The notes: generated by a model not told the origin, from the sequence alone. Shown: positions 3,427 through 48,939, counted from the stretch's first letter. The stretch is 48,939 bases of DNA from a virus (IMGVR_UViG_2910123500_000001:1-48939); one strand, 5' to 3'. A program made the numbers and translations.

Positions 3427-3885
3427 CTATTGACCAGAGCTAACGATAGAGTGCCCTGCGTTGTCTGCAGCGCCGATTACGGCCATCTGCTTGCCGTTGA
3501 TCGCATTGCCGCTGCCACTGATTTTGAGTGTGCCGGTGAGGTCTACATCGCCCTTGATGACTACTTTTCCGGTGAGGATGTGCAGCTGGTTGGCGCTGCT
3601 CGCCGGCGGCGGATCAGCTTCGGAGTAACAGCCGCCCAGAATTGCCCCGCCTTCGCCTTTCTCATCAAGCAAGCAGCAGACCAGCTCACCCACTGACGGC
3701 ATCCAGTAGGCCTGATTTGCCCCAGCGCGGAACTGCAACACGGGCAGCCAGTAGCTCTCCATGCCCAGCTCGGCCACGTTGACTCGCGCCGTACATTTGG
3801 CTGAATCTATAGCGCTGATGCGGCCAAAATGAAGGCTCACAACGCCGTTGCTACTGTTGTTCTGTTTGGCTCTGTTGGCTGTCAT
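3427..3885 (-). CDS. Baseplate assembly/spike protein, gpV-like
   Basis: GRISAID...ARVNV...WLPVLQFRAG...YWMPSVGELVCCL pattern. First gene of the minus-strand baseplate operon. Confidence 0.7.
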   Translation of the reverse strand: MTANRAKQNNSSNGVVSLHFGRISAIDSAKCTARVNVAELGMESYWLPVLQFRAGANQAYWMPSVGELVCCLLDEKGEGGAILGGCYSEADPPPASSANQLHILTGKVVIKGDVDLTGTLKISGSGNAINGKQMAVIGAADNAGHSIVSSGQ

Positions 3886-3904
3886 TTGGTCCTCGGCGCG
3901 ACAG

Positions 3905-3917
3905 CCTCAGCGTTCCC
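3905..3917 (-). promoter_or_regulatory. Late-leader motif GGGAACGCTGAGG
   Basis: Minus-strand copy with a 19-nt gap between its end and the gpV ATG. Matches the motif family found before the other late operons. Confidence 0.6.
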
Positions 3918-3936
3918 AGGCGGGAAACCTGGGGGC

Positions 3937-4809
3937 ATGAATAATCTAGCGATCGCACCCCAAACCCCCGGCCATCTGGTTCCCCAGCAGGCCAGCTCCG
4001 ACGACCACCTGATTGAGCTTTGGCTGGCGGGCTTCGATTCTCCCAGCACCCGCAAAGCCTATACCAGCGCCATTAATCGGCTGCGGAAGTGGCTTGGCGC
4101 TGTGGGCCTGCGCCAGGTCACCGCCTCCGACCTGGTGGACTACCGCGATAGCTTTAAAGCCAGCTGGAGCGACGCTACCCGCAACCAGCACCTGGCGGCC
4201 ATCAAAAGCCTGTGGAGCTTCGGCTGCGACCTGTGCTACCTGCCCTTCAACGTCCCCCACGCGGTCTACAAGCTCAAAAAGCCGCGCCCGGTTACAGCAG
4301 AGCGCATTCTGACCGAGAAGGAAATGCTCAAAGCCATCCAGTTAGAGCCTGACCCAGGAGCCCAAATCTTTCTACGAATTTTGTACGGAACTGGCATCAG
4401 AGCCAGCGAGGCTATTAGCCTGCGGTGGTGCGACTTTCAGCGCCGTGGGAATCGAGTTTTTCTGCAGGTTCAAAACGGCAAAGGTGGGCAGTTTCGAGAA
4501 ATCGGCTGCCCCCCAAAACTGTACCAAGAGCTGATGGCCCGCCAAAGCCCCACGGCAAGCGGTTCTGAGCTGGTTTTTGGGGTGCCCTATATCCACGCCT
4601 ACAGGTGGGTGAAGCAGGCCCTCACCCGCATCGGCAAACCCGAGGCCTCTCCTCACTGGGCCAGGCACTGTCACGCAGTGGTCAGCCACGAGCACGGAGC
4701 AGATTGGCACTCAATCGCCCGCCAGCTGGGCCATAAGCGGGCCTCATTCACGATGGACCGCTATGGCCACTTCACCGGAAAGGCCAGCTCTGACTATATC
4801 GACTGCTAA
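3937..4809 (+). CDS. Second tyrosine recombinase (XerC/D-like)
   Basis: GIRASE, HWARHCH, LGHKRASFTMDRYGH give the R..HxxR..H..Y catalytic pattern. The ATG at 3937 was chosen because the 3829 start would overlap gpV antisense. Confidence 0.8.
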   Translation: MNNLAIAPQTPGHLVPQQASSDDHLIELWLAGFDSPSTRKAYTSAINRLRKWLGAVGLRQVTASDLVDYRDSFKASWSDATRNQHLAAIKSLWSFGCDLCYLPFNVPHAVYKLKKPRPVTAERILTEKEMLKAIQLEPDPGAQIFLRILYGTGIRASEAISLRWCDFQRRGNRVFLQVQNGKGGQFREIGCPPKLYQELMARQSPTASGSELVFGVPYIHAYRWVKQALTRIGKPEASPHWARHCHAVVSHEHGADWHSIARQLGHKRASFTMDRYGHFTGKASSDYIDC

Positions 4810-15683: not shown

Positions 15684-15968
15684 CTAGGCAACAAATTGGC
15701 CGCAGGGAGATACCCCCCGATCACCGCCTTGACTAGCTGCCGAGAGACGCAACTAGTCAACCGTCACAAACACTGGCACAATCGCTGATCCTGCAAGAGG
15801 TTGAGGCTGTTTTTGCAGGACTGATAATACAAATCGTATTACACGAGATTTCAACGTTTTAGGTGTGTGACAGTTGGGTTCAAAAGTCCAAAATTAGTCC
15901 AACCTGCTTTGTAGTACGTTTTGCGATCACAAGGGTGGGGGGTGCGATCGCCCCTCGATCCTAGCAGT

Positions 15969-27638: not shown

Positions 27639-28262
27639 GTGGCAAGTGTGCCATCGCTCCATCCACCCTCAGCACCAATGGCCAGACTTGCCTGTTATTT
27701 CGTCGCTTCGACCCGCCCGCGCATTCTCGATACGGATCAGGCTCCAGAAGGTAAGTCCCCCTGGACTGTGGGCCGGTCTCCTGAGAGCCAAATCACCTTC
27801 CACAAACCAACCGTCTCCAAAGCTCATGCCCTAATTCGCTACTTTGAAGAGGTAAGGGCTTGGCAGCTTTTGGATTGTGGCAGCCTCAACGGCACGTTCG
27901 TTAATGGCGAGCGGATCGCCCCTTCTCAATGGCGAAACCTGATGGAAGGGGACACAATCGACTTTGGCACCATTGCAGCTCGCGTTCGCATCTCTTTTGA
28001 TGATGATGAAACCCTGCATACCATCGCTGAAGACGAGACGCCAACCTGCAATTTGAAGCCGGCCCTAACTCCGGCTGTTGGTCCAAAGCCAGAGCCAACT
28101 GTTCAACAGGGTGCCGGAGACAAAAGCAAGATGCCGTGGGCGTTGGCTGCGGATGCTCTCGACTGGCTGCAGTCGCCCATCTCTCTGTCGGGAGCAATGT
28201 ACCGACTCCTCGTGTTACTGGCTTTCCTGACGGCTATGGTCGTAGTCGTAATCCACAAATGA
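27639..28262 (+). CDS. FHA-domain protein with a C-terminal transmembrane anchor
   Basis: WTVGRSPESQITFHKPTVSKAHALI...GSLNGTFVNGERI fits FHA. The C-terminal hydrophobic segment is LLVLLAFLTAMVVVVI. Start is GTG at 27639 or ATG at 27678. Confidence 0.7.
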   Translation: MASVPSLHPPSAPMARLACYFVASTRPRILDTDQAPEGKSPWTVGRSPESQITFHKPTVSKAHALIRYFEEVRAWQLLDCGSLNGTFVNGERIAPSQWRNLMEGDTIDFGTIAARVRISFDDDETLHTIAEDETPTCNLKPALTPAVGPKPEPTVQQGAGDKSKMPWALAADALDWLQSPISLSGAMYRLLVLLAFLTAMVVVVIHK

Positions 28263-29344
28263 TTTCAACTCTGGCTGCCGCGATCGCGCTGTGCCCTACT
28301 GCCGCTGCTGCCGTCAATAGCAGGGGGGTGATCTGGCTGTGCAATGAGCCCTTTGCGGCGCTGCTGGGGCACTCCAGAAGCGAAATTGAAGGGCAGGTAT
28401 GTTTGAGCGAACTGGCCCTCCTAGGGGAGCAGGCAGCGGCCCACAAGCAGCATCAGGCGCTGATGGCGGGCAGCGTGGAGAGCTATGAGCTGGACGGCCA
28501 CTGCTGCCGCCCAGACGGACAAAGTTTTTGGATGCATCTGGTGGTGGGGTGCTTCGACCATAGCTACTCGCTTGTGTTTGCCCACAGCATCACCCGGCAT
28601 CAGGAGGTGTCGGCCTTGGAAGTGCTTAAGGATGAGCTGTTGGAGGCAATCCGCTTGCGGCAGTTCGTCCTGTGGTATCAACCCATTGTCCACCTGGCTA
28701 CCGGCAGGATTTTGGCTCAGGAGGCGCTGGTGCGGTGGCAACACCCTAACGGCCTGCGCTACCCAAATTACTTTTTGCCCTTTGCCAGGCACCTGGGGCT
28801 GGAGACCTGGATCTGCCGTATCGTCTTGGGGCTGGCCGCAAAGCAGCTGCGGGCTTGGTCTGATACTGGCGAAACCTGGGCTGTGGCTGTCAATATTGAG
28901 CCCTCAACACTGGAGCTGGTGGCCTTTGAGGAGATGGTCGAGTTTGCAATCGCGCGCTACGGTGCCCCCGCAGACAGGCTGTGGCTAGAGATTGTGGAGA
29001 CTCAAAGTCTCGACATTGAGTCTCTGGTCGATAAGTTGAGGCGGTTGAGCAAGCGCCACCTGTTGGCCATCGACGATTTTGGTGCGGGCTATTCCAATCT
29101 GGGAGCAGTCACCCGCTATCCAGTGCAGGCACTCAAAATCGACAAGCACCTGATCAAAGGGGTGGACCACGATCCGGGCCTGCAAACGGTGGTGGGCACA
29201 GTTATTGTCATGGCTCACGAGTTGGGCCTAAAAGTCGTCGCTGAAGGTATTGAAACCGAGGCGGAGCTGCAGTGGCTTAAGACTTACGGCTGCGATTTCG
29301 GGCAAGGATTCTGGCTGGGCAGACCTGCGGCGGCGAAGCAGTAG
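28259..29344 (+). CDS. PAS-EAL c-di-GMP phosphodiesterase
   Basis: QEALVRW, EIVETQ, AIDDFGAGYSNL, KIDK, AEGIETE and GQGFW motifs. The ATG overlaps the FHA stop codon (ATGA). Confidence 0.85.
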   Translation: MISTLAAAIALCPTAAAAVNSRGVIWLCNEPFAALLGHSRSEIEGQVCLSELALLGEQAAAHKQHQALMAGSVESYELDGHCCRPDGQSFWMHLVVGCFDHSYSLVFAHSITRHQEVSALEVLKDELLEAIRLRQFVLWYQPIVHLATGRILAQEALVRWQHPNGLRYPNYFLPFARHLGLETWICRIVLGLAAKQLRAWSDTGETWAVAVNIEPSTLELVAFEEMVEFAIARYGAPADRLWLEIVETQSLDIESLVDKLRRLSKRHLLAIDDFGAGYSNLGAVTRYPVQALKIDKHLIKGVDHDPGLQTVVGTVIVMAHELGLKVVAEGIETEAELQWLKTYGCDFGQGFWLGRPAAAKQ

Positions 29345-29459
29345 GCAGCAAATCTACGCATGGCTCTGGCGGGCTGACTTAGAAATTCAGTAGTTGTCTC
29401 AATGGCACGGTCTAAAGCGCTACCGATGATAGGTTTAGCCACCTCGCCCCCGCCTCAGT

Positions 29460-30230
29460 ATGCGCCCGTCTACTCCCGCCGCTACGAACTGCCTCGAAGC
29501 TTTGATTGCTTACAAGCAAAACCCTTCAACCGAAGGCCGAAATAAATTGGTACGGCTCAATGCAGGCCTAGTGCGAAAAGTTGCACACCGCATCCTACAG
29601 CAGTGCAATGAGCCCTATGAAGACCTGGAGCAGATTGGTTACCTGGGCCTGATCCGGGCCATCGAGCGCTTCGATCCGACTCAGGGCTGCGCTTTCAGCT
29701 CGTTTGCGGTGCCCTACATTCGGGGGGACATGCTGCACTACCTGCGCGATCGCAGCGGCACCGTCAAAATCCCCCGCCGCTGGCAGGACTTGCAGAAGGA
29801 GGCGCAGAAACTGCAGCCGCAGCTGCAGCGGGTGCTGGGGCGCACGGCTGATGAGACTGAGCTGGCCCAGGCGCTGGGTGTGCCGGTGAGCGAGTGGCAG
29901 GAGGCTAAGTTCTCGAACAAAAATCGTCACCTCCTAAGCCTTGATGCCAGGGTAGGCGGACAGGATGATTCTGCGATTACGCTGGGAGAAACTCTCCCGG
30001 ATGCGAACTACCAAGTAATGCAAAAACTTGAGGAAGATCGGGCGCAACTGCAGCGAGCTATGCAGGGCTTGGAAGAGGGCACGCGCACTGTGATTGAGTT
30101 TGTGTTTTACAACGGTCTATCTCGAAAAGAGGTAGCTAAAAAAATTGGTGTTAGCCCTATGACGGTCAGCCGCAGACTTCAGGAAGGCCTGCAGCAAATG
30201 GCTTCATGCCTGGGCGCTGCTAAGGCATGA
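29460..30230 (+). CDS. Sigma-70 family sigma factor, group 3 (SigF/SigB-like)
   Basis: YEDLEQIGYLGLIRAIERFDPTQGCAFSSFAVPYIRGDMLHYLRDRSGTVKIPRRWQDL, plus the region 4 HTH LSRKEVAKKIGVSPMTVSRRL. Confidence 0.85.
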   Translation: MRPSTPAATNCLEALIAYKQNPSTEGRNKLVRLNAGLVRKVAHRILQQCNEPYEDLEQIGYLGLIRAIERFDPTQGCAFSSFAVPYIRGDMLHYLRDRSGTVKIPRRWQDLQKEAQKLQPQLQRVLGRTADETELAQALGVPVSEWQEAKFSNKNRHLLSLDARVGGQDDSAITLGETLPDANYQVMQKLEEDRAQLQRAMQGLEEGTRTVIEFVFYNGLSRKEVAKKIGVSPMTVSRRLQEGLQQMASCLGAAKA

Positions 30231-30305
30231 AAAAACCGCCCAGGAGAGGCGGCGTGGTGCGGTTTGTATGGGTTTCTCCTACTAAGAACCATGTGTGCCA
30301 GTCGG

Positions 30306-30457
30306 CTCAGGATGCCGCTTAAGCCAATTCAGGATGCTCAGGACGTTTCGCTCAGGATTTTCAGGATAGGACTCTCAGGACGGCTCAGGATGCCCATCCT
30401 GTCGATAATCCTGAGCCGTCCTGAGGGGTTTTCGGATTCCATCCTGAGTATCCTGAG
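30306..30457. repeat. Converging array of (C)TCAGGA(T) 8-mers
   Basis: Seven plus-strand copies (cores at 30307, 30329, 30338, 30352, 30361, 30375, 30385). Four perfect and one degenerate minus-strand copies (30397, 30409, 30419, 30442, 30451). Perfect 18-bp inverted repeat at 30374-30391 / 30408-30425. Confidence 0.85.
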
Positions 30458-30465
30458 CATTTTGC

Positions 30466-32229
30466 CTAGGCTGTGCCACTTACGGCATAGAGGGGGGCAC
30501 CATTCTCAAATCTGCTCAGAATCATTCCCTCTTCAGCCATTCGGTTCAAGACCGCTTTAGCCTCCTCAGCAGAGAGTTTTTTTAGGTCTGTGATCGCACT
30601 CTTGATTTGGTGCCCAGGGACAAATCCGTCTTGTCGTTCTAGGTAAGCGACTACCTTGGCTTCTACCGATTCAGATGTCTGCTGTTGGAAGGCATTCTCT
30701 AGCCGCTGCTGGTCAGTTTGGGGTGCGGCTCCATAGGTGGGTTCAGCATCTTGAGAGGGGCTCGGGTAGGCCATACGACCGGGTACAAGGCAGGGTTTTA
30801 CATCTCCGTCGAACTGAGGGAATGAGCACAGCAACGGCTCACCTTTGACGGCTGCCAGCTGATAGAAACCGCTATCAAGTTTCTTCAATTCTGCCACCTG
30901 CGGCCCGGTCAGAGAATCGACGTGCTTCGAGTACCATGCCGGCATGTGGGAGAAGCCATCGGCGCACCGCTCCGATCCGCAGATGACAGACCAAAGGTTT
31001 TGCAAACTGGCGGCAGAGATGCCCTTGATATCGCTGCCGTTTTGGGTCTGCGACATCAGGGCCAGCATTGCCCCTTGGGCGGCTCCGGTCGCCAGCAGGA
31101 GCTTAATCAGGCTGCTGAACTGTTTGGTCACTTTCTTGTCTTCGTCGGTTTCGGCCTGTGACTCTAGCAGGTCAGTGACGGCCAGGGCCTCGTCTAGCAC
31201 CAGCCAGTGAGTCTCCTTGCACCGGCCATCGAGAATGGCGGCAATCATCGGCTGCACCTCTGCCAGGACAGCAGCGACATCGGCATGGATGTTGAATGCC
31301 CGCAACCGGTAGCCCTTCCAGTGGTGGGGCACGCGATCGCTGTCCTTCAAGGTCAGGTAGGTGACATGCTGAGCGTCTTTCAGCAGGTGCAGCAGCGTGT
31401 TGGTCTTGCCGCCCCTAGACGGTGCCAGCAGCTTCAGGTGCGTCTCTGGGCGCAGCGACAGCACTCCGCGAGGAATGGCAGTTCTGACGGCTGAACTGTC
31501 GTCACAGGGCTGAACCGACTCAGCTGGGACTGCGATCGCACCTAGCCGGGTAGTCGGCCCAATGTTGCCCCCGGTCGGCTGCGGCTCGGGTTCAGGCGTA
31601 GAGTCTGCCGGCAGGGCTGCTTGCTGCTGTGCCCCTGCCCGTAGCCGCTTGAAATCATCCTCACTGGCTAGGACGTACTCAGCCACTTCGGCAGCATCAA
31701 CGGCCATCAGCAGCTCGGGGGTGTGCTTGATGTGTTGCCCGTACAGCTCATGGAACCGGCGCTTTGCCACGCTGTAGGCAAAGTAGCGGTGCTCGTCACT
31801 GGGGAGCTGAGCTAGGGCATGGGCCAGCCTGTTGCCGCAGGTGAGGATCAAGGCGTACTCAGCCTTTTGGGCGGCGCTCATGTAGCTGTAGTCTTCGAGC
31901 TCTGGCAACTCCATCTGAGCACCAGAAGCAGCCCCTAGCATCTCGGCGGTACCGGTATCGCTGAAGGGGATGAGCATCACCCGGCCAGTCTTCTTGGCCT
32001 GGCCCATCACCCCAGCTATGTAGGTCACTACACCGATGCCGATCGGGATGGTGGCCAGCCCGCCAGTCGTGATGGCAGCCAGGCCCCCTAGCGCTAGGCT
32101 GGTCAGCCCCAAGGTCTTGCTCAGATTCCCGGCGGCGCGCTCGGCCTGGGCGTCTTCCACCAGTGATGTCAGACGGCGCTTGAGGACGATCTGAGCGTTT
32201 GAAACTTGCTGCTGAATCTCGGTGCTCAT
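30466..32229 (-). CDS. Membrane-anchored FtsK/SpoIIIE/TraB-like (FtsK-HerA superfamily) ATPase with a C-terminal wHTH
   Basis: N-terminal hydrophobic hairpin, Walker A LLAPSRGGKTNT, Walker B HWLVLDEA, LALMSQTQ...IKGISAASLQN, and a gamma-like C-terminus ...AKAVLNRMAEEGMILSRFENG. Confidence 0.6.
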   Translation of the reverse strand: MSTEIQQQVSNAQIVLKRRLTSLVEDAQAERAAGNLSKTLGLTSLALGGLAAITTGGLATIPIGIGVVTYIAGVMGQAKKTGRVMLIPFSDTGTAEMLGAASGAQMELPELEDYSYMSAAQKAEYALILTCGNRLAHALAQLPSDEHRYFAYSVAKRRFHELYGQHIKHTPELLMAVDAAEVAEYVLASEDDFKRLRAGAQQQAALPADSTPEPEPQPTGGNIGPTTRLGAIAVPAESVQPCDDSSAVRTAIPRGVLSLRPETHLKLLAPSRGGKTNTLLHLLKDAQHVTYLTLKDSDRVPHHWKGYRLRAFNIHADVAAVLAEVQPMIAAILDGRCKETHWLVLDEALAVTDLLESQAETDEDKKVTKQFSSLIKLLLATGAAQGAMLALMSQTQNGSDIKGISAASLQNLWSVICGSERCADGFSHMPAWYSKHVDSLTGPQVAELKKLDSGFYQLAAVKGEPLLCSFPQFDGDVKPCLVPGRMAYPSPSQDAEPTYGAAPQTDQQRLENAFQQQTSESVEAKVVAYLERQDGFVPGHQIKSAITDLKKLSAEEAKAVLNRMAEEGMILSRFENGAPLYAVSGTA

Positions 32230-33104
32230 GCCTGCACCTCCTCATCTTCCAGGTCGGTCAGCCCGGTCAATTTGTAACAGCTCTCGAAGCCGAACACCTC
32301 GATCACCCCGTTGAGCAGCAGGAACACAACGGTGCTGCCGCTGTGCTCAAAAGTGACCAGGAAGCAGCCGATTTCAAAAACGTAGCTGGTCACAATCACC
32401 AGGCCATCGAAGATGTAGTTGTCTACCTCGGCGTACTGAAATTCAGCGTTTCGGATCTTTGCGATCGCTAGAGCTCTGGGGCTGAGGTCATCTACCCGAT
32501 ATTTGCGAACCCGGTCAAGCCTGGCTTTACGAACTTTGATGCTGACCGAGCGGATTGCTTTGGCCTGAAGGATGCCGCTGACCGCAGCTCCCACTAGCGC
32601 GATGTAGAAGTTGGGGTCAGCCCAGACGAGGTAATTGTCGAAGCTGGTGTTGCCGAAAGCTCGGTAGCCCGGCACCCAGCCGAAAGCGAAGTTGGAGCTT
32701 AGGCGGACCAGCTTCAGGGGACTGGGCAGCACTCGGCCCAGCTGAGCCCCATCAGAGACGCCTAGCTTCGGAACGAATCTGACGTCTTCGGCGACCCGGC
32801 CAGAGCCGTAAATCTCGCTGGTGCCGGCGTTGAGCAGCACGAGCAGACTCTCGGTGGTGAGGCCGTAGGCATAGACCATGCCGGCACTGAACAGCAGCAC
32901 CTTGCCGGTGATTTCAATCTTGCCTCTGCCCTTGGCTTCCTCGGGTTCTGTCAGCCAGGCCAGGCCGCGAGCAATCCAAACGATGGGGCGGCCCAGCTGA
33001 GCCAGCAGGGGCGTTTTACTAGAGGCTTTAGGCTTCCAGTTGTTGTCCCTGGTAGCGGTGTCTGCAGGTGTGGTGGTGTCTGCGGGAGGATTAGCTGATT
33101 TCAT
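32226..33104 (-). CDS. Polytopic membrane protein
   Basis: Several hydrophobic helices (VLLFSAGMVYAYGL, FYIALVGAAVSGIL, GLVIVTSYVFEIGCFLV, VVFLLLNGVI). Its stop codon overlaps the ATPase start. Confidence 0.55.
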   Translation of the reverse strand: MKSANPPADTTTPADTATRDNNWKPKASSKTPLLAQLGRPIVWIARGLAWLTEPEEAKGRGKIEITGKVLLFSAGMVYAYGLTTESLLVLLNAGTSEIYGSGRVAEDVRFVPKLGVSDGAQLGRVLPSPLKLVRLSSNFAFGWVPGYRAFGNTSFDNYLVWADPNFYIALVGAAVSGILQAKAIRSVSIKVRKARLDRVRKYRVDDLSPRALAIAKIRNAEFQYAEVDNYIFDGLVIVTSYVFEIGCFLVTFEHSGSTVVFLLLNGVIEVFGFESCYKLTGLTDLEDEEVQA

Positions 33105-33119: not shown

Positions 33120-33626
33120 TTACTTGAGTTGGCCAAACGTGCACATCTTTCCGGCGCTCATGGCGGGCTCGGTGTCGATGGTGATGACCGCGCCATCCTT
33201 AACGGCTGCGACCAAGTGGCCGGATTCCGCATAGAGGGGATACCAGCGCCCCAGCGCGGGGTTGAAAATCGGTGCAGTGGGGTTGAGGCCCCAGTTGATG
33301 AGGTCTTGATCGACGGTGCCGGGGTTGTAGCGAAATCGGTTGAGCCTGACCCCGCAGGTGTGGTCGAGCACGTTGGCCCGCTGGTAGGCGTCTGAGAGTT
33401 GCGCTCGCTGCTGAATCTGGGCTAGCTCGGCCTCGGTTTTTTCCTGAGCTCGCAGCTGAGAGCGCTGCACTGAAACCCGCGTCATTGTCTCGCGCTCGCT
33501 CATGTTGTCCCAGACTGCCAGCGTGTTCTGAGTTCCCAGCAGGCCCATACACGCAGAAAACCCAGCGAGGACTGGCAGGCCCCACCGGCTAACGGCTTTG
33601 TGTTTATCGGTTGGAATGAAATTCAT
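33120..33626 (-). CDS. Signal-anchored protein with coiled-coil and globular domains
   Basis: The ATG at 33626 (MNFIPTDKHK...) was chosen. It has a TM segment WGLPVLAGFSACMGLLG. The longer ORF to 33764 would overlap the upstream gene. Confidence 0.45.
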   Translation of the reverse strand: MNFIPTDKHKAVSRWGLPVLAGFSACMGLLGTQNTLAVWDNMSERETMTRVSVQRSQLRAQEKTEAELAQIQQRAQLSDAYQRANVLDHTCGVRLNRFRYNPGTVDQDLINWGLNPTAPIFNPALGRWYPLYAESGHLVAAVKDGAVITIDTEPAMSAGKMCTFGQLK

Positions 33627-33681: not shown

Positions 33682-33996
33682 CTAGACGCTTGCGTAGCAG
33701 AGGCTTTCTGCGATCGCATTGACCAAGGTGACTGCTTCCCCCCAACTCGTGAGTTCTTCGTCAAGCTGCTGCACCAGAGTCAGCAGTTCGCTGTCGGCGG
33801 TGGGGTAAGCGTCTAGCAGGGCAATGTCTAGGCGCTCTGAGATGCCGTCCTGCTGGACAGCTGATGCGGCATACGCTAGGGCGGCCATCAGGTGCAGGCG
33901 AGTCTCTACGGTGAGGTGCTGCAGGGTGCTGCCGTAACGCTGCTGTAGGGCCTGCACCGAAGGCAGATCGAGGTAATAGGTCAGGCAGTTAGCCAT
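33682..33996 (-). CDS. Hypothetical helical protein
   Basis: 104 aa, preceded by copy A of the 81-nt leader element. Confidence 0.4.
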   Translation of the reverse strand: MANCLTYYLDLPSVQALQQRYGSTLQHLTVETRLHLMAALAYAASAVQQDGISERLDIALLDAYPTADSELLTLVQQLDEELTSWGEAVTLVNAIAESLCYASV

Positions 33997-39348: not shown

Positions 39349-39596
39349 AGAATTTTTTACTTCAACAAATTGCAGCCCAAAGGGGGCAACAACTTGGATA
39401 TCGCAGTGACGGGCACCGAAACGCAGGCGTCGCAGTGACGAGCATCACAACGATGGCTATCTTAATGAATCTAACACGAAGCAACACTCGGAATCGGGAC
39501 GGAATTCCCGAACAGTCAGATTTTACATGCACTTCACCCGCTCAGTCAGCTTGCTTAAGCACGCTGCTGCAGTGCGATCGCTCGGTAGTGAGTTCA

Positions 39597-39623
39597 GGCG
39601 TGGCTTTGGCCGACGCCTTTTTG
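39597..39623 (+). terminator. Terminator/attenuator-like hairpin just upstream of the primase-helicase start
   Basis: GGCGTGGC-tttg-GCCGACGCC (one bulge) followed by TTTTTGTTTG. The ATG lies at 39644. Confidence 0.45.
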
Positions 39624-39643
39624 TTTGCTGTTTTGAGGTTCTG

Positions 39644-42600
39644 ATGGTTTCGATAGACACTCCACCTGCCCCAAGTCATATCGCCCCAAAGCACTGGCAG
39701 GAATGGGTTACAGGCAGCCAAGTATCTCCCCATATTGCGGCACTTAATCTGTCTGAATACTCCGGTCAGGCGGTCATTGAGATGCTGGCTGACAAGCCCC
39801 TTAGCAAGCTGGGGCCACACTCAAAAATCTATGTCACCGCTGGGATGAGGCGCATTTTGCAGCGCTACGAAGGCCCTAGCCAGGGGGGATGGGGTCTTTT
39901 TGGGCTTGACCCGCTCAACGACTGGCAGCAGTCGAGCTGGTTCAGGTTCAAGCCTGACACTCCTCACTTTGACTCAGAGCGACAGCGCCCGGTCAAATAC
40001 GAGAGCCCAGCCGGGGAACCAACCCGCGCTACGTTCCTGCGCGTGAGTTACGCCGATTCAGTTTTAACAGCAGAGAGGATCAAAGACAGTTATGAAACAG
40101 CGTACTGTGCATTCCGGTCAAGGCTTTATGACAAGCTCCAACAAGCGGCGAAAGCCAAGGGCCAGCAACTACAAAGTTCACAAGAGCCCGCTACTGGAAG
40201 TGATGACGATAGACCTGCACAGATTTTTGAGGGGGATGCCTGGTTCGCAGCCGCCAGAGGTCAGTTCAAAAAAGCTCATCAAATCCTGAGCCAGGCACGA
40301 GAACCCATTGAGGATGAAGGCTTCTGGCCGTGGGTAGACCGCTTCGTTTTACCTGTGGCTATTGTCGAGGGGGAGAAGAAGGCTGGGGCCATGCTCTCTC
40401 TCGGTATCCCCGCGATCGCAATTCCAGGTATTCGCAACGCCGTGCGCACCCGTGACAAAGAGGGCAACCGGCTGCTGGAGCCCTACCTCATCCCAGAGCT
40501 AAAACACTTTGCCACGGAGAACCGAGAGGTCACGGTCTGCTTTGACTACGAAACCCGCCAGGAGCAGCGGCTGGAGCTAGACCTGGAAATCGAAAAAATC
40601 AAGGTGCAGTTCAGCAGGGCCAAATGCCAGGTGAAGGTGCTGGAGCTGCCTGGCCCCCAGAAGGGGGTGGACGATTTCATAGTGGCGCACGGCTGGGAAG
40701 CTTTTGCAGCGCTCTACGATGGCGCTCCTAGCTTTGAGCTTTGGACGGTGATCCGCTACAGCAGGCTGACCTACAAAACCGATCTGGAGCTTAACCAGCG
40801 CTATTTAGGAGACATCCCCATCCCGCCCACAGCGAAGCTTATTGCCATCAGCTCACCCAAAGGCACCGGCAAAACCGAGAGCTTCCGGTCGCTGGTGGAA
40901 GAGGCCAGCGCTCGCGGCCAGCGCACCCTGCTTATCACTCACCGAGTGCAGCTGGGTCAGGCCATTTGCGATCGCGTCTACCTGCCCTACGTGACCGAGC
41001 TGCGCAGCAGCGAGGAGGGCTCGCTGCTGGGCTATGGCGTGTGCATCGATAGCTTGCACCCCGAGTCTCAAGCCCGGTTCAATGCCGAGGACTGGAGCAA
41101 TGCGCTGGTCATTATCGACGAATGCGAGCAGGTTGTTTGGCACCTGCTGAGCGCCACCACAGAGGTCAAAAATCGCCGGGTCGAAGTGCTCAAGCAGCTG
41201 CAGACCTTGCTCAACGGCGTGCTGGCCAGCGACAGGGGCCGCATTGTTCTCTCCGATGCCGACCTGTCAGATCTGAGCCTCGATTTTGTTCATTCCCTGC
41301 TCAACAACCGGCTCAAGTTTGAGTCCTTTGTGGTGGCCAACCGCTACCAGCCGCAGGAGCCTTGGGAGGTAACGCTCTACCGCCAGAGCAAGCCCGCCCA
41401 ATGGATGGCAGCACTGCTGGAGCACATCGGCGACGGGGGCAAGCCCTTCGTAGTTACGCAGTCGCAAAAAACGAAATCCAAGTGGAGCACCACCACGCTG
41501 GAGAAGCTGCTCAATGAGCGATACCCAGAGCTGCGGGTGCTGCGCATTGATAGCCAAAGCGTGGCCGACCCCAGCCACCCAGCCTACCTCTGCACCTCCA
41601 ACCTCAATGAGGTACTGCTGGGGTATGACGCGGTGATAGCCTCTCCCACCATCGAAACCGGGGTGAGCATCGACATCAGAGGCCACTTCACCAGCGTCTG
41701 GGGCTGTATGCAGGGTGTGCTGCCTGAGAACTCTGCCAGGCAGTCACTGGCCCGGGTGCGAGAGCCGGTGCCCAGGCACATCTGGTGCAGCCCTTTTGGG
41801 GTAGGCCGAGTTGGCAACGGCGGCACATCTGTGCGCTCAATCCTGGCCGCAGAGTACAAGCTCGCTAAGCGCAGCGCCCAGGTGCTCAGCTACGCAGCCC
41901 TGGGAGATGACATGATCTCGGCCTTTGGCTCGGTGCTGCGAATTTGGGCAGCAATGGCCTGCCGCATCAATGCGGGAGCAGTTCGCTATCGGGACTCGGT
42001 ACTCTACGGCCTGCAGCAAGAGGGGCACACCGTTACGGAGGACGACCAGGTGCGGCCCATTGTGGGGTTAAACGTTGACCTGGAAAAAATTAAGCGGGAG
42101 CAGTTCGCCAAGGAATGCGAAGCCACTTCAGCTGAGGAGGAGATTCACACCGAGCGCGAGTATGAGGAGCTGAAGGGCAAAAAGGCCAAAACCAAATCCG
42201 AGTGGTATAAGCAGCGGAAATACGAAATTCAGCAGCGCTACGGGCAGGAGGTGACCCCCGAGCTGGTGGCAAAAGATGCTGACGGTTGGTATCCCCAGCT
42301 CAGGCTTTTCTACTACCTCACCCTCGGCAATAGCTTTCTGGCAGAGCGCGATCGGGGAGCTTTTGACACCCAGCTGAAATCTGGTGCTGCCTGGCTACCC
42401 ACCCTCAACCGCTCGCAACTAAGCCTGCGGGTGAAGGCCCTCGACTACCTGGGCATCAAAAAGCTTTTCAACACCCAGGAGTGCTTTAACGGTGGCACCA
42501 GGGCCGATGAGGCCGAGATTGAGGCGGGCGATCGCACTCACTACGATGATGCACACCCCCTCCTCTTGGAGGTCGCCGAGGCGGCCCGCAAATTCAGCTG

Positions 42601-42877
42601 GGAGATCAGGGCCATTTTGGGCATCACCACTAGTGAGAAAATGTCGCCAATACAGATCTGCCAGGCTCTTTTGGGCAAGGTAGGCATAAAGCTTGAGTGT
42701 GTTTGCCAAGAGGGTCCGCGTGGAGCCAGGCAGCGCATTTACAGGTTTAGACAGCCGCAGGACGGAAGGGCTGAAGTCCTTGAAGGCTGGTATCTGCGAG
42801 ACGTTTCAGCTCATGACGCCGGGGGAGCGGTGCACACCCCTGGTAATAAAGAGATTTACTCTGGGGAGGCCGCATGA
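39644..42877 (+). CDS. Toprim primase-like plus P-loop helicase replication protein (DUF3854-type N-terminus)
   Basis: HWQEWVTGSQVSPHIAALN, Toprim-like VAIVEGEKKAGAMLSLGIPAIAIPG, Walker A SSPKGTGKTES and Walker B LVIIDECEQ. The ATG at 39644 has a GAGG Shine-Dalgarno sequence. Confidence 0.7.
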   Translation: MVSIDTPPAPSHIAPKHWQEWVTGSQVSPHIAALNLSEYSGQAVIEMLADKPLSKLGPHSKIYVTAGMRRILQRYEGPSQGGWGLFGLDPLNDWQQSSWFRFKPDTPHFDSERQRPVKYESPAGEPTRATFLRVSYADSVLTAERIKDSYETAYCAFRSRLYDKLQQAAKAKGQQLQSSQEPATGSDDDRPAQIFEGDAWFAAARGQFKKAHQILSQAREPIEDEGFWPWVDRFVLPVAIVEGEKKAGAMLSLGIPAIAIPGIRNAVRTRDKEGNRLLEPYLIPELKHFATENREVTVCFDYETRQEQRLELDLEIEKIKVQFSRAKCQVKVLELPGPQKGVDDFIVAHGWEAFAALYDGAPSFELWTVIRYSRLTYKTDLELNQRYLGDIPIPPTAKLIAISSPKGTGKTESFRSLVEEASARGQRTLLITHRVQLGQAICDRVYLPYVTELRSSEEGSLLGYGVCIDSLHPESQARFNAEDWSNALVIIDECEQVVWHLLSATTEVKNRRVEVLKQLQTLLNGVLASDRGRIVLSDADLSDLSLDFVHSLLNNRLKFESFVVANRYQPQEPWEVTLYRQSKPAQWMAALLEHIGDGGKPFVVTQSQKTKSKWSTTTLEKLLNERYPELRVLRIDSQSVADPSHPAYLCTSNLNEVLLGYDAVIASPTIETGVSIDIRGHFTSVWGCMQGVLPENSARQSLARVREPVPRHIWCSPFGVGRVGNGGTSVRSILAAEYKLAKRSAQVLSYAALGDDMISAFGSVLRIWAAMACRINAGAVRYRDSVLYGLQQEGHTVTEDDQVRPIVGLNVDLEKIKREQFAKECEATSAEEEIHTEREYEELKGKKAKTKSEWYKQRKYEIQQRYGQEVTPELVAKDADGWYPQLRLFYYLTLGNSFLAERDRGAFDTQLKSGAAWLPTLNRSQLSLRVKALDYLGIKKLFNTQECFNGGTRADEAEIEAGDRTHYDDAHPLLLEVAEAARKFSWEIRAILGITTSEKMSPIQICQALLGKVGIKLECVCQEGPRGARQRIYRFRQPQDGRAEVLEGWYLRDVSAHDAGGAVHTPGNKEIYSGEAA

Positions 42878-47307: not shown

Positions 47308-47657
47308 CGGACACAGCCCAGACAATAGCCCTGCTGCTAGAAACCGCTGCGGCTCAGCAGAAGCTGGCCGAGGCCGCCCTGGAGATGGCTAGAGATCTAC
47401 AGCGCCAGACTCAAGAGCATCAGTGGGTGAAACTTACAGAAGCCGCCCTAATGCTGGGCAGCGCCTTCACAGCGGGCAAAATTGGCGACGACATCAAGGC
47501 TGGGCTCTTCAAGTACGGGCGAGACTACATCAACACCAGCAACGGCGTGAAGCCTAACTACGCCGTGAAGGTTGCTCGCCTGCGCAAGGTCTACGAGCTG
47601 GAGCCAGAGAAGCGCCCCACCTACCCCCAGCCAGAACCTGCTCAGAAAGAGGCTTAG
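47304..47657 (+). CDS. Possible excisionase / recombination directionality factor
   Basis: Last early gene, convergent with and overlapping the integrase by 4 nt. WVKLTEAALMLGSAFTAGKI is HTH-like. Confidence 0.3.
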   Translation: MTDTAQTIALLLETAAAQQKLAEAALEMARDLQRQTQEHQWVKLTEAALMLGSAFTAGKIGDDIKAGLFKYGRDYINTSNGVKPNYAVKVARLRKVYELEPEKRPTYPQPEPAQKEA

Positions 47658-48760
47658 ATGGGTCTGTTCAGCCTGGCCCGCTCCCATGCCTGCTGCATGT
47701 GGTCCCTGTTCAGAAACTGCTGATAAATCCGGTTGTGAACCACCAGGCTGTGATCCATCATCTTGGCGGCAATGCTGGGGTCTAGGCCCATCACTGCCGC
47801 CCTGGCCGCCCAGCAGTGCCTCAGGTCGTAGGGGACAAATGGCATCTGGTTGCGGTTGAAATACTGCGAAACGCGCATCCCATAGTCGCTGTTGCGCTTA
47901 GCTGTCAGCCTGGGCAGCTCTACATCCCAAAGCCGAAATCGCTCCCACCAGTCGTCTGGCAAAGGCCAAACGCTGTGGGGCTTTCTGTTTTTGCCATCCT
48001 GCACCAGGGCAATACCTGGGGGCTCCTTGAGCGCTTCCAGGTCCACAAAAAACACCTCATGATCCCTAAGACCATAGGTCGCCATGAGGGCATAAACACA
48101 CTGCCACGGGCGCGACGGTATCTGGTCGTAGTAGGCCAATATTTCTTGGTCACTAGGCAAGTCACGAGGGTTCACCGAGCTGGGGCTATACGCGCCCCTG
48201 TAGGCCGTGAGGTTGGCATCGAGCTGCGCCAGTCTGGCCAGTGCTCCATAGGCCATAGCGGCCCGCTGCCGTGCCCTGGTGTCAGGCTTAGTGGTCTCCA
48301 GCAGTACCTTGACCAGCAGCTCGGCAGAAAGGTCTTTGTCCGCTGGCAGCCGCCGAAACGGGATCTGGTAATCCTTTTCCCAGGTCGTCTCGCTCTGGGG
48401 GTTGCGATCGCGGCGCTGGAAATAGTTTTGCTCGAATGCCTCCACCCAATCGGCGCAGGTTTGGCACCGGCGCTCAGTGGCGGACCAGTCCGCCCAGCTG
48501 AATCGCCCCATAGGAAGGTCAGAGGCCAGGCGCTGAGCATCGGCCAAAGATCGCTTCACCCCAGCCGGGTTGAGAAAGACCCCCAAAGCAATCCTCTGCT
48601 GATAGGGTTTATCCTTTGAGCTATTGGGCTTCGGTGGTAGCGTGGCCCTTAGGTAGAGCCGGTTGCTTCCCTTCACTTGAACAATCTGCACCCCAGAGCG
48701 GGCTGCCTTTAAAGAGGCGTTGGCTTCTGCCAGCAAATCCTCAACGGAACGCTTGCCCAC
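47654..48760 (-). CDS. int: Tyrosine integrase
   Basis: YGLRDHE, PYDLRHCWAARAAVMG and MDHSLVVHNRIYQ give an R..HxxR..H..Y pattern. Adjacent to attR. Confidence 0.85.
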   Translation of the reverse strand: MGKRSVEDLLAEANASLKAARSGVQIVQVKGSNRLYLRATLPPKPNSSKDKPYQQRIALGVFLNPAGVKRSLADAQRLASDLPMGRFSWADWSATERRCQTCADWVEAFEQNYFQRRDRNPQSETTWEKDYQIPFRRLPADKDLSAELLVKVLLETTKPDTRARQRAAMAYGALARLAQLDANLTAYRGAYSPSSVNPRDLPSDQEILAYYDQIPSRPWQCVYALMATYGLRDHEVFFVDLEALKEPPGIALVQDGKNRKPHSVWPLPDDWWERFRLWDVELPRLTAKRNSDYGMRVSQYFNRNQMPFVPYDLRHCWAARAAVMGLDPSIAAKMMDHSLVVHNRIYQQFLNRDHMQQAWERARLNRPI

Positions 48761-48894: not shown

Positions 48895-48939
48895 TTGTGG
48901 TTCCACCATTCGAGGGTTCGAGTCCCTTCGTTCGCCCTT
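48895..48939 (+). repeat. attR core (duplicate tRNA 3' fragment)
   Basis: Identical to 1-45. No matching tRNA 5' half (GCGAACG...) lies upstream, so this copy is partial. Confidence 0.8.

Follow-up and report, generated by a model that had tools for sequence, protein, structure and literature searches.

Some FtsK-type motors use a winged-helix tail to read short oriented DNA words of 8 bp, a device that serves chromosome segregation in the case of FtsK and SpoIIIE and conjugation in the case of TraB and its clt locus. To our knowledge, TraB/clt is the sole conjugation system of this kind and is confined to actinomycetes, and we know of no case of double-stranded conjugation in a diderm phylum. 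Streptomyces TraB is described as reading direct 8-bp clt repeats via its C-terminal part and as pumping double-stranded DNA (PMC4447253; PMC3429521). The locus described here lies in a viral stretch of 48,939 nucleotides, analyzed at its full length and referred to as the window, and encodes on the minus strand a 587-aa ATPase whose stop codon is followed by a dense array of oriented repeats (Table 1). We tentatively favor a composite reading, just short of probable: the ATPase would be a DNA-translocating motor in the membrane, and the array its self-specific loading site, similar in function to clt. A search of open-access papers gave no description of this ATPase family or of a cyanobacterial TraB-like system, in agreement with a preliminary description of the sequence that knew of no such architecture on a cyanobacterial prophage.

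Table 1. Features of the ATPase operon and its downstream array (positions in the window)
Feature	Position	Strand	Basis or remark
Intrinsic terminator of the ATPase operon	30235..30253	-	7-bp stem, TTTTTT tail; beyond the array
Right flanking box GACTGGCACA	30294..30303	-	directly past the last repeat; orientation as left box
Distal block, 7x (C/T)TCAGGA(T/C)	30306..30392	+	antisense relative to the ATPase gene
Perfect 18-bp inverted repeat at the block junction	30374..30425	.	arms 30374-30391 / 30408-30425, 16-bp spacer, 2 repeats per arm
Proximal block, 4 exact and 1 degenerate CTCAGGAT	30396..30458	-	sense relative to the ATPase gene
Left flanking box AAGTGGCACA	30472..30481	-	lies in the final ATPase codons
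587-aa membrane-anchored P-loop ATPase with C-terminal winged helix	30466..32229	-	WP_190489063.1, "hypothetical protein", Pseudanabaena sp. FACHB-2040
C-terminal winged helix-turn-helix, residues ~520-585	30475..30672	-	AF2: three helices and a beta-hairpin, pLDDT 94-97
ATPase core, residues ~255-485	30775..31467	-	AF2 pLDDT 92; Foldseek PDB matches
Walker B, HWLVLDEA	31189-31206 (WLVLDE)	-	
Walker A, LLAPSRGGKTNT (core listing: APSRGGKT)	31402-31425	-	
N-terminal hydrophobic hairpin, residues ~42-78	31996..32106	-	predicted membrane anchor; Kyte-Doolittle scan
292-aa multi-pass membrane protein, conserved operon partner	32226..33104	-	stop overlaps ATPase start (ATGA); hydrophobic segments
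~168-aa conserved operon partner	33120..33626	-	listed ORF 214 aa, start probably M47
104-aa conserved operon partner	33682..33996	-	

Domain layout and fold of the ATPase

The reading frame and both Walker motifs are as the preliminary description had given them, and the layout it proposed, a hydrophobic hairpin followed by a P-loop domain and a winged helix, is borne out by the Kyte-Doolittle scan, the AF2 model and a profile of the tail. The hydrophobic N-terminal stretch is kept in long and short forms of the protein and in distant relatives, and the N-terminal module is common to paralogues with FtsK_SpoIIIE, HerA/DUF87 and AAA_10 (VirB4-like) domains; one of the paralogues, P0089, has a bona fide FtsK_SpoIIIE domain (75 bits). 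Within the core, G274 and K275 of Walker A are invariant or nearly so (13-52 homologues), D346 and E347 of Walker B are conserved among homologues, and the invariant columns comprise H264, K275, Y291, K295, D298, P301, W304, D346, E347, G382, Q394 and N397. In FtsK, a polar residue and an arginine finger ("TQRP") lie past the strand that follows Walker B. The corresponding element here is an invariant SQTQN motif (LMSQTQN) with Q394 and N397 at the TQRP position; the arginine at that position is not conserved (family consensus SQTPN), nor was another candidate arginine finger detected. The AF2 model used for comparison covers residues 250-587 (52 sequences, pLDDT 92), a full-length model from 13 sequences having been poor (pLDDT 50) and set aside. 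In this model the core and the winged helix are joined by a linker of ~35 aa that is of low confidence or disordered, and the motor lacks the FtsK alpha domain.

Scans with Pfam, NCBIfam, PHROG and PADLOC returned no model for the ATPase and nothing usable for its operon partners. Pfam gave nothing for the 587-aa protein at E<=0.1, FtsK_SpoIIIE and Ftsk_gamma included, and PF01580 matches only 2 of 44 family members, at E ~8e-4 and below its curated cut-off. Renewed searching with the 44-sequence alignment added a single protein, the 278-aa fragment P0116. No relationship was found when the family profile was aligned by hhalign to the FtsK-domain paralogue P0089 (probability 0.6%). Homology was detected for the paralogue families P0064 and P0093 (95% probability), although no Pfam FtsK model matched either of them. 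Searches of PDB sequences by phmmer and by profile recovered P-loop motif matches only. Judged from sequence, the ATPase family is one that lacks annotation.

Structure comparison is more informative. The best Foldseek matches in the PDB are TcpA (2e-5), the FtsK motor (2ius and 6t8o, 4-6e-5), EccC and VirB4, with FtsK-family alignments of modest TM-score (~0.4) and an rmsd of ~5.4 A over ~240 columns; RecA and RadA align with an rmsd of 9-12 A, and ORC is among the weaker matches. In a viral structure library, TM-score and rmsd are best for A32 packaging ATPases and for phage "FtsK" proteins, and the top E-values belong to an uncharacterised Nodularia phage protein and to primase-helicases with a C-terminal winged helix. 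A structural similarity to FtsK-HerA translocases, anticipated in the preliminary description, is present at modest scores, and its FtsK/TraB-like motor stands as a modest resemblance to the solved folds of TcpA, FtsK, EccC and VirB4, but not as membership in a sequence family, since no FtsK/SpoIIIE sequence model matches. Its gamma-type winged helix fared similarly: the tail is a winged helix, but Ftsk_gamma does not match it, and its profile is closest to the BlaI/MecI-like 2g9w (E=3e-7), followed by DsvD, Hop2 and ArsR. On our reading, the 587-aa protein would be anchored in the membrane and would belong to the FtsK/TcpA-like branch among P-loop motors, and it is slightly more likely than not a ring-shaped translocase of double-stranded DNA.

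The primase-helicases and the ORC match also bring up a role in replication, in which the protein, as an ATPase with a winged helix, would act in the manner of P4 alpha or Orc1 as initiator or helicase, with the inverted blocks that adjoin its gene as iterons. Initiator genes often adjoin inverted origin repeats. However, the primase-helicases align with a TM-score of 0.25-0.30 and an rmsd of ~20 A, compared with 0.36-0.43 for the FtsK/A32-type ATPases, the AF2 model has no AAA+ lid domain, and both the membrane hairpin and the membrane proteins of the operon are conserved. The window array has no AT-rich unwinding stretch, and a dedicated replicase is encoded on the same elements (a DUF3854 protein here and possibly the large proteins of L001, L002 and L015 described below). 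We regard an origin as quite improbable, even more so than the regulatory role considered in the next section.

The repeat array and its covariation with the winged helix

Of the 42 exact TCAGGA copies in the window, 11 fall within 30307-30456, a density for which the Poisson probability (at least 11 copies in 151 bp) is 1.5e-19. Seven copies start on the plus strand (30307, 30329, 30338, 30352, 30361, 30375 and 30385) and four on the minus strand (30409, 30419, 30442 and 30451), with a degenerate minus-strand copy, ACAGGAT, at ~30396-30402. The array repeat has the consensus (G)CTCAGGAT(G/A), and the plus and minus blocks face each other. Same-sense copies have a modal spacing of 9-10 bp, and spacing in the distal block is 9-14 bp except for one 22-bp gap. 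The polarised 8-mer array of the preliminary description, with seven plus and four minus copies and one degenerate minus copy, is confirmed by these counts, as is the perfect 18-bp inverted repeat formed by its inner copies; the distance from the stop codon to the first repeat, given there as 8 nt, measures 7-8 nt. The parallel that it drew with KOPS does not extend across the element. Outside the array (48.8 kb) TCAGGA was observed 31 times against 27 expected from shuffles, and the motif is neither enriched nor strand-polarised (Fisher p 0.27 to 1), so that there is no KOPS-like skew. Motif polarity of the KOPS kind over the element was rejected on these grounds.

When folded as single-stranded nucleic acid, the window array forms a long hairpin (-81 kcal/mol, z -6.9), and it lies between convergent genes. 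Both properties would suit a purely structural element, a bidirectional terminator or single-strand hairpin that adjoins the ATPase gene incidentally. However, the equivalent region of L003 has an unexceptional fold (z -1.9), and a strong hairpin is therefore not a conserved property of these arrays. In addition, the two blocks are unequal (2-4 vs 5-10 copies), and the motif shifts with the protein tail over 15 related loci. The only terminator-like site in 29900-30700 is the canonical minus-strand one at 30253-30235, 40 nt past the array, and the array itself contains no GC-rich hairpin with a U-run of the intrinsic-terminator kind. An Rfam search gave only spurious miRNA-hairpin matches. The separate terminator, the motif/tail covariation and the L003 fold effectively refute the structural-hairpin reading, which retains almost none of our credence, and with it the fallback of the preliminary description that the block is a mere terminator palindrome.

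A 10-bp box brackets the array on both sides. Its consensus, AACTG(G/T)CACA, lies at -15 to -19 from the stop codon in 11-12 of the 15 distinct loci of relatives; it is read there in two different frames, so that the left box is conserved at the DNA level. Past the array, the window has the terminator and then a convergent sigma-factor gene, with no gene trailing the array. L001, L009 and L011 each have, starting 20-40 nt past the right-hand box, a small ORF whose ribosome-binding site is strong, and some relatives have AT-rich DNA past the box.

The small ORFs of these three loci are compatible with an operator, at which the winged helix would only regulate transcription, either read-through of its own operon or the small genes past the array, and the membrane role of the ATPase would be unrelated. 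Moreover, the closest sequence relatives of the tail, winged helices of the BlaI/MecI type, are repressors. In the window, however, the array precedes a terminator and a convergent gene instead of a gene to regulate, its left box sits in a coding region, and the 10-14 repeats in two blocks seen across loci far exceed the needs of an operator. Fusion of the winged helix to a membrane ATPase would also go unexplained, and we consider regulation alone improbable.

Comparison of related loci provides the main argument for recognition of the array by the tail. The ATPase has 17 close homologues and about 100 distant ones, and its relatives include proteins with a Zn-ribbon tail. An array is present past the stop codon in all 15 distinct related loci with a winged-helix ATPase, down to ~20% identity, as the preliminary description had expected of orthologues; the negative control L016, an FtsK-domain paralogue without a winged helix, has none. 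In 14 of the 15, 2-4 sense copies come first and 5-10 antisense copies after them; the sense copies of these 14 loci sit at similar offsets (+3 to +10, +9 to +19 and +32 to +42 past the stop), and the array of L014 is built from a palindromic motif. Scanning with the family alignment yielded 4 loci in genome contigs and zero in viral and metagenome contigs. Nothing matched when 50,697 phage and 72,556 plasmid records were searched by tblastn with the ATPase and with P0031, a distant relative, or in a blastn search of the region against plasmids.

The repeat motifs, among them CTAGAC, CGAGAC, GTAGGTG and GTGGGTG, fall into 8 classes, and motif class tracks the C-terminal 58 aa and not the ATPase core. 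L001 and L009 have ATPases that are 94% identical, tails that are 55% identical, and different motifs, whereas L001 and L010 share a motif with ATPases at 81% and tails at 91% identity. The ATPase of P0017 is divergent, but its tail resembles that of P0010, and the two loci have one motif in common. Motifs predicted in advance from the tails were right for P0003 (TCAGGAT), P0005 (CTAGAC) and P0011 (GTGGG, not GTAGG). For P0020 the prediction was GTAGG and the motif found was GTGGG, one base off; this misprediction gave rise to the rule that G in EIR[N/G]AC specifies GTGGG instead of GTAGG, a one-residue N/G to A/G correlation, and the rule then correctly predicted P0011. The covariation strongly supports the earlier proposal that the winged helix reads the 8-mers, and we consider it very probable that the winged helix binds the array repeats.

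Operon partners, carrier element and possible roles

All three genes upstream of the ATPase gene have counterparts in related loci. Homologues of the 292-aa membrane protein are found upstream of the ATPase in L001 (82%), L009 (85%), L011 (31%) and several further contigs; the ~168-aa protein has 68% identity to L001 and a weak match to L002, and the 104-aa protein has 66% identity to L001 and 43-46% to L002 and L011. The window, a contig that is complete at 48.9 kb and whose two ends are identical over 45 bp, carries phage structural genes along with a CyRepA-like replication gene (DUF3854). CyRepA is a replicase of plasmid type (PMC10079941). The designation of the element as a prophage is only partly borne out by these features. 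One reading of the 45-bp end repeat is as a tRNA 3' end, from the T-arm-like sequence GGTTCGAGTCCC, and no tRNA or Rfam family was detected at the contig ends. The ATPase module is carried by several kinds of mobile element. L014 encodes a protelomerase; ParM-like (ALP_N) genes head the ATPase operon in L001, L011 and L015 and in no other loci; and the uncharacterised proteins of 1185-1307 aa encoded by L001, L002 and L015 are large and possibly replicases. Among the window ORFs scanned there is no ParM or ParA, and no relaxase or VirB4 was identified.

These properties bear on whether the array is a centromere, that is, a partition site coated by winged helices where the ATPase anchors the episome at the membrane or septum and the DNA stays in the cell. 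The spacing of 9-10 bp between most same-sense repeats is also seen in parC-type centromeres. A single array per element with no genome-wide polarity, the ParM-like genes leading the same operon in three loci, and the plasmid-type replicase are likewise consistent with partition. However, where ParM and a small downstream gene are present, the loci resemble complete partition cassettes as they stand, and the window has no ParM; the protein predicted to bind the array is the membrane ATPase of 587 aa and not a small ParR/ParB adaptor. We know of no partition adaptor that is fused to a membrane-anchored FtsK-like ATPase, and the conserved multi-pass membrane partners would be unexpected in a partition system. 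On this evidence tethering appears rather unlikely, and a role in transfer, which we tentatively prefer to one in segregation, is a possibility. Transfer is also one of the candidate roles named in the preliminary description, next to multimer resolution and exclusion.

The loading-site reading can be expressed as a series of steps. The winged helix, tethered via its flexible linker, would bind the 7-8-bp repeats that lie 7-8 nt past its own stop codon, and the array would constitute a cis-acting, element-specific loading site whose functional parallels are clt for TraB and KOPS/SRS for FtsK/SpoIIIE. The repeats are about one helical turn apart in two facing blocks bracketed by the 10-bp box, an arrangement in which the winged helices of an oligomer could fill neighboring repeats, so that the motor forms at the membrane on double-stranded DNA belonging to the element. 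The motor and the co-transcribed membrane proteins would then move element DNA through a membrane barrier. The likeliest barrier would be the septum between filament cells, resulting in cell-to-cell spread; alternatively, DNA may be cleared through a closing septum.

A more specific version of the loading-site reading is relaxase-free, TraB-like pumping of double-stranded DNA between cells in filamentous cyanobacteria, hence beyond the Actinobacteria, as a portable module of phage-plasmid-like elements. The inverted blocks would load two motors, one per loop arm, so that a circular episome is fed apex first through the septal membrane, and the element would have two routes of spread, by virions between filaments and by DNA pumping along a filament. 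Taken with all of its parts, we consider this version unlikely. The element already has phage genes for its own spread, which counts against the composite claim, as do the lack of any known case of double-stranded conjugation in a diderm phylum and the repeats phased at ~10 bp, which also have the look of a partition centromere.

The family itself is unannotated, contains roughly 100 sequence clusters whose named members are all cyanobacterial, and follows the same logic as FtsK and TraB with no detectable sequence relationship to them and with a site that is built differently. Its 8 classes of motif, together with natural tail swaps and the one-residue correlation, amount to a ready specificity table, and this comparative table makes protein-DNA recognition directly testable. 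Should the module prove to transfer DNA from cell to cell, no earlier system in a diderm phylum would have been both double-stranded and relaxase-free, and bloom-forming and mat-forming cyanobacteria would have a further route of gene flow, new to science. Should it serve segregation instead, it would represent a new type of centromere-binding machine. In either role, pairs of array and tail could provide orthogonal DNA-targeting parts for cyanobacterial genetics.

Comparison with known systems

FtsK with KOPS and SpoIIIE with SRS resemble the present system in having a flexibly linked C-terminal winged helix (gamma) and an oriented 8-bp motif, and the fold of the 587-aa protein shows a modest similarity to the FtsK motor. 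In contrast to KOPS and SRS, which are dispersed chromosome-wide and polarised, the motif here forms one dense array and shows no skew elsewhere. The 587-aa protein also differs in lacking an alpha domain, in a tail that is not gamma-like in sequence, and in a two-helix hairpin where FtsK and SpoIIIE have four transmembrane helices.

TcpA is an FtsK-like type IV coupling protein that acts on single-stranded DNA with a relaxase and a mating-pair apparatus as partners. The protein from Clostridium perfringens pCW3 is the best solved match (E 2e-5, 240 columns); it is likewise encoded on a mobile element and likewise places a compact ATPase of FtsK-like type behind an N-terminal membrane anchor. 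Unlike the 587-aa protein, TcpA has no fused DNA-binding domain, and neither a relaxase nor a VirB4 was identified among the window ORFs scanned.

The partition systems parC/ParR and sopC/SopB share with this locus dense short repeats about one helical turn apart that adjoin the gene for their known or putative binder and are recognized in an element-specific manner. Their binders are small adaptors, however, whereas the binder here would be fused to a membrane-anchored, motor-type ATPase, and we know of no counterpart among partition centromeres of the two-block inverted layout with its flanking box.

TraB/clt of pSVH1, pIJ101, pJV1 and actinomycete AICEs differs from the cyanobacterial system in that TraB matches FtsK_SpoIIIE models and the 587-aa protein does not, no sequence relationship being detectable between them. 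The clt repeats are described as direct, whereas those of the window and of 14 of the 15 related loci form two inverted blocks, which in the window are flanked by the 10-bp box, and the present host is a diderm cyanobacterium whose element carries phage structural genes. Nevertheless, TraB and, by prediction, the 587-aa protein combine an N-terminal part associated with the membrane, a motor resembling FtsK and a C-terminal domain for DNA recognition, and the two systems share co-transcribed membrane proteins, which in TraB systems are the Spd proteins, and hosts that are multicellular and filamentous. In both, cis repeats of ~8 bp lie on the same element as the protein that reads them, as described for TraB (PMC4447253) and as predicted from motif/tail covariation for the cyanobacterial ATPase.

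A repeat array behind the ATPase gene

The ATPase of the window (WP_190489063.1, "hypothetical protein" at NCBI, Pseudanabaena sp. FACHB-2040) is encoded by the gene that closes an operon on the minus strand, and its stop codon is followed by an array of short repeats in two facing blocks. The preliminary description of an ORF abutted by converging repeats proved accurate, including the inverted repeat; the full repeat is (G)CTCAGGAT(G/A), and a single degenerate minus-strand copy sits between the two blocks. Elsewhere in the 48.9-kb window TCAGGA occurs 31 times against 27 expected from shuffles, with neither enrichment nor strand polarity beyond the array, so the 11 copies within 151 bp have a Poisson probability of 1.5e-19.

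Features of the window discussed in the text
Feature	Position	Strand	Remarks
Identical ends	1-45 and 48895-48939		45 nt; contain T-arm-like GGTTCGAGTCCC
Tyrosine recombinase	3829-4809
Further box copies	15759-15875		three copies, clustered with a hairpin
FHA-domain, PAS-EAL and sigma-70 family genes	27639-30230	+	between tail genes and array
Terminator-like site	30253-30235	-	past the array
Box, right copy	30294-30303	-	immediately past last repeat
Array	30306-30458		7 exact TCAGGA on +, then 4 on -; 11 exact cores in total
Perfect 18-bp inverted repeat	30374-30391 / 30408-30425		within the array
ATPase ORF	30466-32229	-	587 aa
Box, left copy	30472-30481	-	within last codons of ATPase gene
DUF3854 protein	39527-42877	+	1116 aa; DUF3854 (E 7.6e-37) and AAA domain
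Integrase-like ORF	47654-48760	-	368 aa; right end of window, adjoins 45-nt repeat

The preliminary description had allowed that the block might be only a terminator palindrome. As a single strand the window array does form a very stable hairpin (z -6.9), but the array of the related locus L003 has z -1.9 and no comparable hairpin, so the hairpin is not what is conserved. The sole terminator-like site near the array lies past it, so transcription of the operon probably continues across the repeats. A mere terminator or hairpin is effectively refuted. That the array, lying directly behind the ATPase gene, acts as an operator for its flanking genes is improbable.

An addition to the first finding is a 10-bp box, AACTG(G/T)CACA, in direct orientation on both sides of the array in 11-12 of 15 related loci (box-bearing relatives are L001-L003, L005, L006, L009-L013 and L017). 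The left box is translated in two different frames depending on lineage, giving TGT or TVT versus QLS or VSQ, and is therefore conserved as DNA and not as protein. The box has no overall enrichment across the window. Three more copies, AACCGTCACA, CACTGGCACA and, on the minus strand, AACTGTCACA, lie within the phage structural module, in a non-coding gap of 510 bp.

Covariation of repeat motif and winged-helix tail

In this wholly computational analysis, downstream DNA was compared for 15 distinct winged-helix relatives, which range from 77% to ~20% identity and many of which lie on short contigs. An array follows the stop codon in all 15, a favourable outcome of the check, proposed earlier, on whether orthologous ATPases keep one. 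The layout is common to the window and 14 of these loci, with two to four gene-sense copies followed, in the relatives, by five to ten antisense copies; the gene-sense copies stand at near-fixed offsets (+3 to +10, +9 to +19 and +32 to +42), and same-sense spacing is mostly 9-10 bp. The array is absent from L016, the one examined paralogue with a true FtsK domain and no winged helix. Among distant relatives, the proteins P0019, P0022, P0023 and P0028 have a Cys4 zinc ribbon (InsA/IS91-like) in place of the winged helix and others an unrelated helical domain, which makes the DNA-binding tail an exchangeable module.

Repeat motifs at the window and related loci
Motif	Loci
CTCAGGAT	window, L001, L010
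(A)CTAGAC	L002, L011
GACGAGAC	L009
GTAGGTG	L003/L004, L005, L006
(G)TAGAG/T	L007, L015
GTGGGTG	L008, L012, L017
CGGGGAA	L013
GCCCTAGGG	L014 (palindromic; array starts ~95 bp downstream of stop)

Judged by sequence, the motif tracks the tail and not the motor. The ATPase cores of L001 and L009 are 94% identical and their C-terminal 58 residues 55%, and their motifs differ; for L001 and L010, which share a motif, the corresponding values are 81% and 91%. The tails of L002 and L009 resemble each other (73%), and so do the motifs, CTAGAC at L002 and CGAGAC at L009; P0017, which joins a P0010-like tail to a divergent ATPase, has the motif of P0010. Motifs predicted from the tails, ahead of any look at the DNA, were borne out for P0003 (TCAGGAT) and P0005 (CTAGAC). 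GTAGG, predicted for P0020, was ruled out, its array having GTGGG. This miss drew attention to a one-residue correlation, in which E(I/V)R-N-AC accompanies GTAGG and E(I/V)R-G-AC accompanies GTGGG, and the rule then predicted P0011 correctly. From the linkage in every locus, the motor-independent covariation and the successful predictions, we infer that the tethered winged helix very probably binds the repeats, which is the best-supported step of the proposed mechanism.

Fold and kinship of the motor

The ATPase begins with a hydrophobic stretch (residues 42-78) whose 37-residue length fits a two-helix hairpin. In the P-loop core the Walker A lysine and Walker B Asp-Glu are invariant, as are Q394 and N397 after the strand next to Walker B, and Y-x-T-x-K-x-x-D-x-x-P-x-x-W is a motif specific to the family. 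Residues 250-587, modelled by AF2 on an alignment of 52 sequences (mean pLDDT 92), end in a winged helix of three helices and two strands, joined to the core by a linker of ~35 residues with low model confidence. Searched against solved structures, a profile of the tail alone matched a BlaI/MecI-like winged helix (3e-7), then DsvD, Hop2 and ArsR, and did not match FtsK gamma; of the "gamma-type winged helix" first proposed, the winged helix stands and the gamma type does not.

No Pfam, NCBIfam, PHROG or PADLOC model matched the ATPase, and sequence methods found no link between its core and FtsK. In the PDB its best structural match is TcpA of pCW3, an FtsK-like coupling protein (2e-5), followed by the E. 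coli and Pseudomonas FtsK motors (4-6e-5) and then EccC and VirB4, a modest similarity of ~240 columns at ~5.4 A; RecA, RadA and Rad51 rank after these with far larger rmsd. In a viral structure library the best superpositions are phage 'FtsK' proteins and A32-type packaging ATPases. There the lowest E-values are those of an uncharacterised protein from a Nodularia phage and of primase-helicases that likewise end in a winged helix, with poor TM-scores (0.25-0.30); that the array is an iteron origin and the ATPase its initiator-helicase is very improbable. The Nodularia phage protein (BFVD A0A482MIE7, 712 aa, vB_NspS-kac65v161) matches both ATPase and winged helix (E 2.9e-10); tblastn of the window ATPase against the phage collection found nothing, so any kinship is remote.

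A ~200-aa N-terminal membrane module is common to dozens of paralogue clusters (P0013-P0017, P0042-P0115) with other NTPase cores, which touch HerA/DUF87, AAA_10, nSTAND3 (STAND-type), NACHT and ATPase_2 models. One paralogue, P0089, joins this module to a bona fide FtsK_SpoIIIE domain (75 bits), which links the ATPase to FtsK indirectly. We conclude that the motor is FtsK/TcpA-like in fold and architecture and lies outside the FtsK/SpoIIIE sequence family.

Carriers and proposed function

The window is the entire 48,939-bp contig. Its identical ends are either an att core or a circular-assembly overlap, and ARAGORN and Rfam found no tRNA there. The integrase-like protein has homologues (35-40% identity) at L007 1131-2195 and L008 3448-4488, at a distance of a few kb to the module with the ATPase. 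With these ends, the integrase-like gene and the recombinase, phage structural genes (terminase, portal-like, capsid, sheath and tape-measure) and a DUF3854 replication protein, the element is a temperate phage or phage-plasmid. DUF3854 proteins of CyRepA type are cyanobacterial plasmid replication proteins (PMC10079941), and the co-occurrence of one with head and tail genes suggests a phage-plasmid. The PAS-EAL gene near the array encodes a cyclic-di-GMP phosphodiesterase, and at L017 a sigma-70 gene is likewise convergent to the ATPase homologue.

Relatives keep as upstream operon partners a 292-aa multi-pass membrane protein and ~168-aa and 104-aa proteins. At L001 (6332-7327), L011 (474-1520) and L015 (2154-3140) the operon opens with a ParM-like (ALP_N) gene, accompanied by a divergent RHH_5 gene; short palindromes occur in the intergenic region at these loci. 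A distant module relative (L014, 556-1977) has a ResT/TelK-type protelomerase as its neighbour, pointing to a linear cyanobacterial plasmid-prophage, and other carriers have serine recombinases (L002) or IS elements (L003). Given such varied neighbours, the module moves among mobile elements; all named sources are cyanobacteria (Leptolyngbyaceae, Leptolyngbya and Pseudanabaena).

The simplest reading that accommodates the membrane anchor, FtsK/TcpA-like core, flexible linker and membrane partners is that a DNA motor at the membrane would load specifically on the array of its own element, for which TraB/clt is the precedent (PMC4447253; PMC3429521). Repeats spaced by one turn could place several tails of one oligomer on the same face of the DNA, and, more speculatively, two assemblies of opposite orientation could load on the inverted blocks. 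As output of such loading we slightly favour cell-to-cell transfer over septal segregation or tethering, because a ParM cassette is already present in several carriers, there is one site and not a dispersed set, the module is portable among mobile elements and the named hosts are filamentous. Of the rival readings, an array acting as a centromere or tether is the strongest, though rather improbable.

Searches of open-access papers turned up no account of this ATPase family, nor of any TraB-like system from cyanobacteria, and those of phage and plasmid record collections found no ATPase homologues. Compared with known systems, the likeness to FtsK/KOPS is the more distant one: by sequence the ATPase falls outside FtsK/SpoIIIE and its tail outside the FtsK gamma domain. 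The window system would work like TraB/clt, although the clt repeats are described as direct, whereas the window site consists of inverted blocks with a flanking box.
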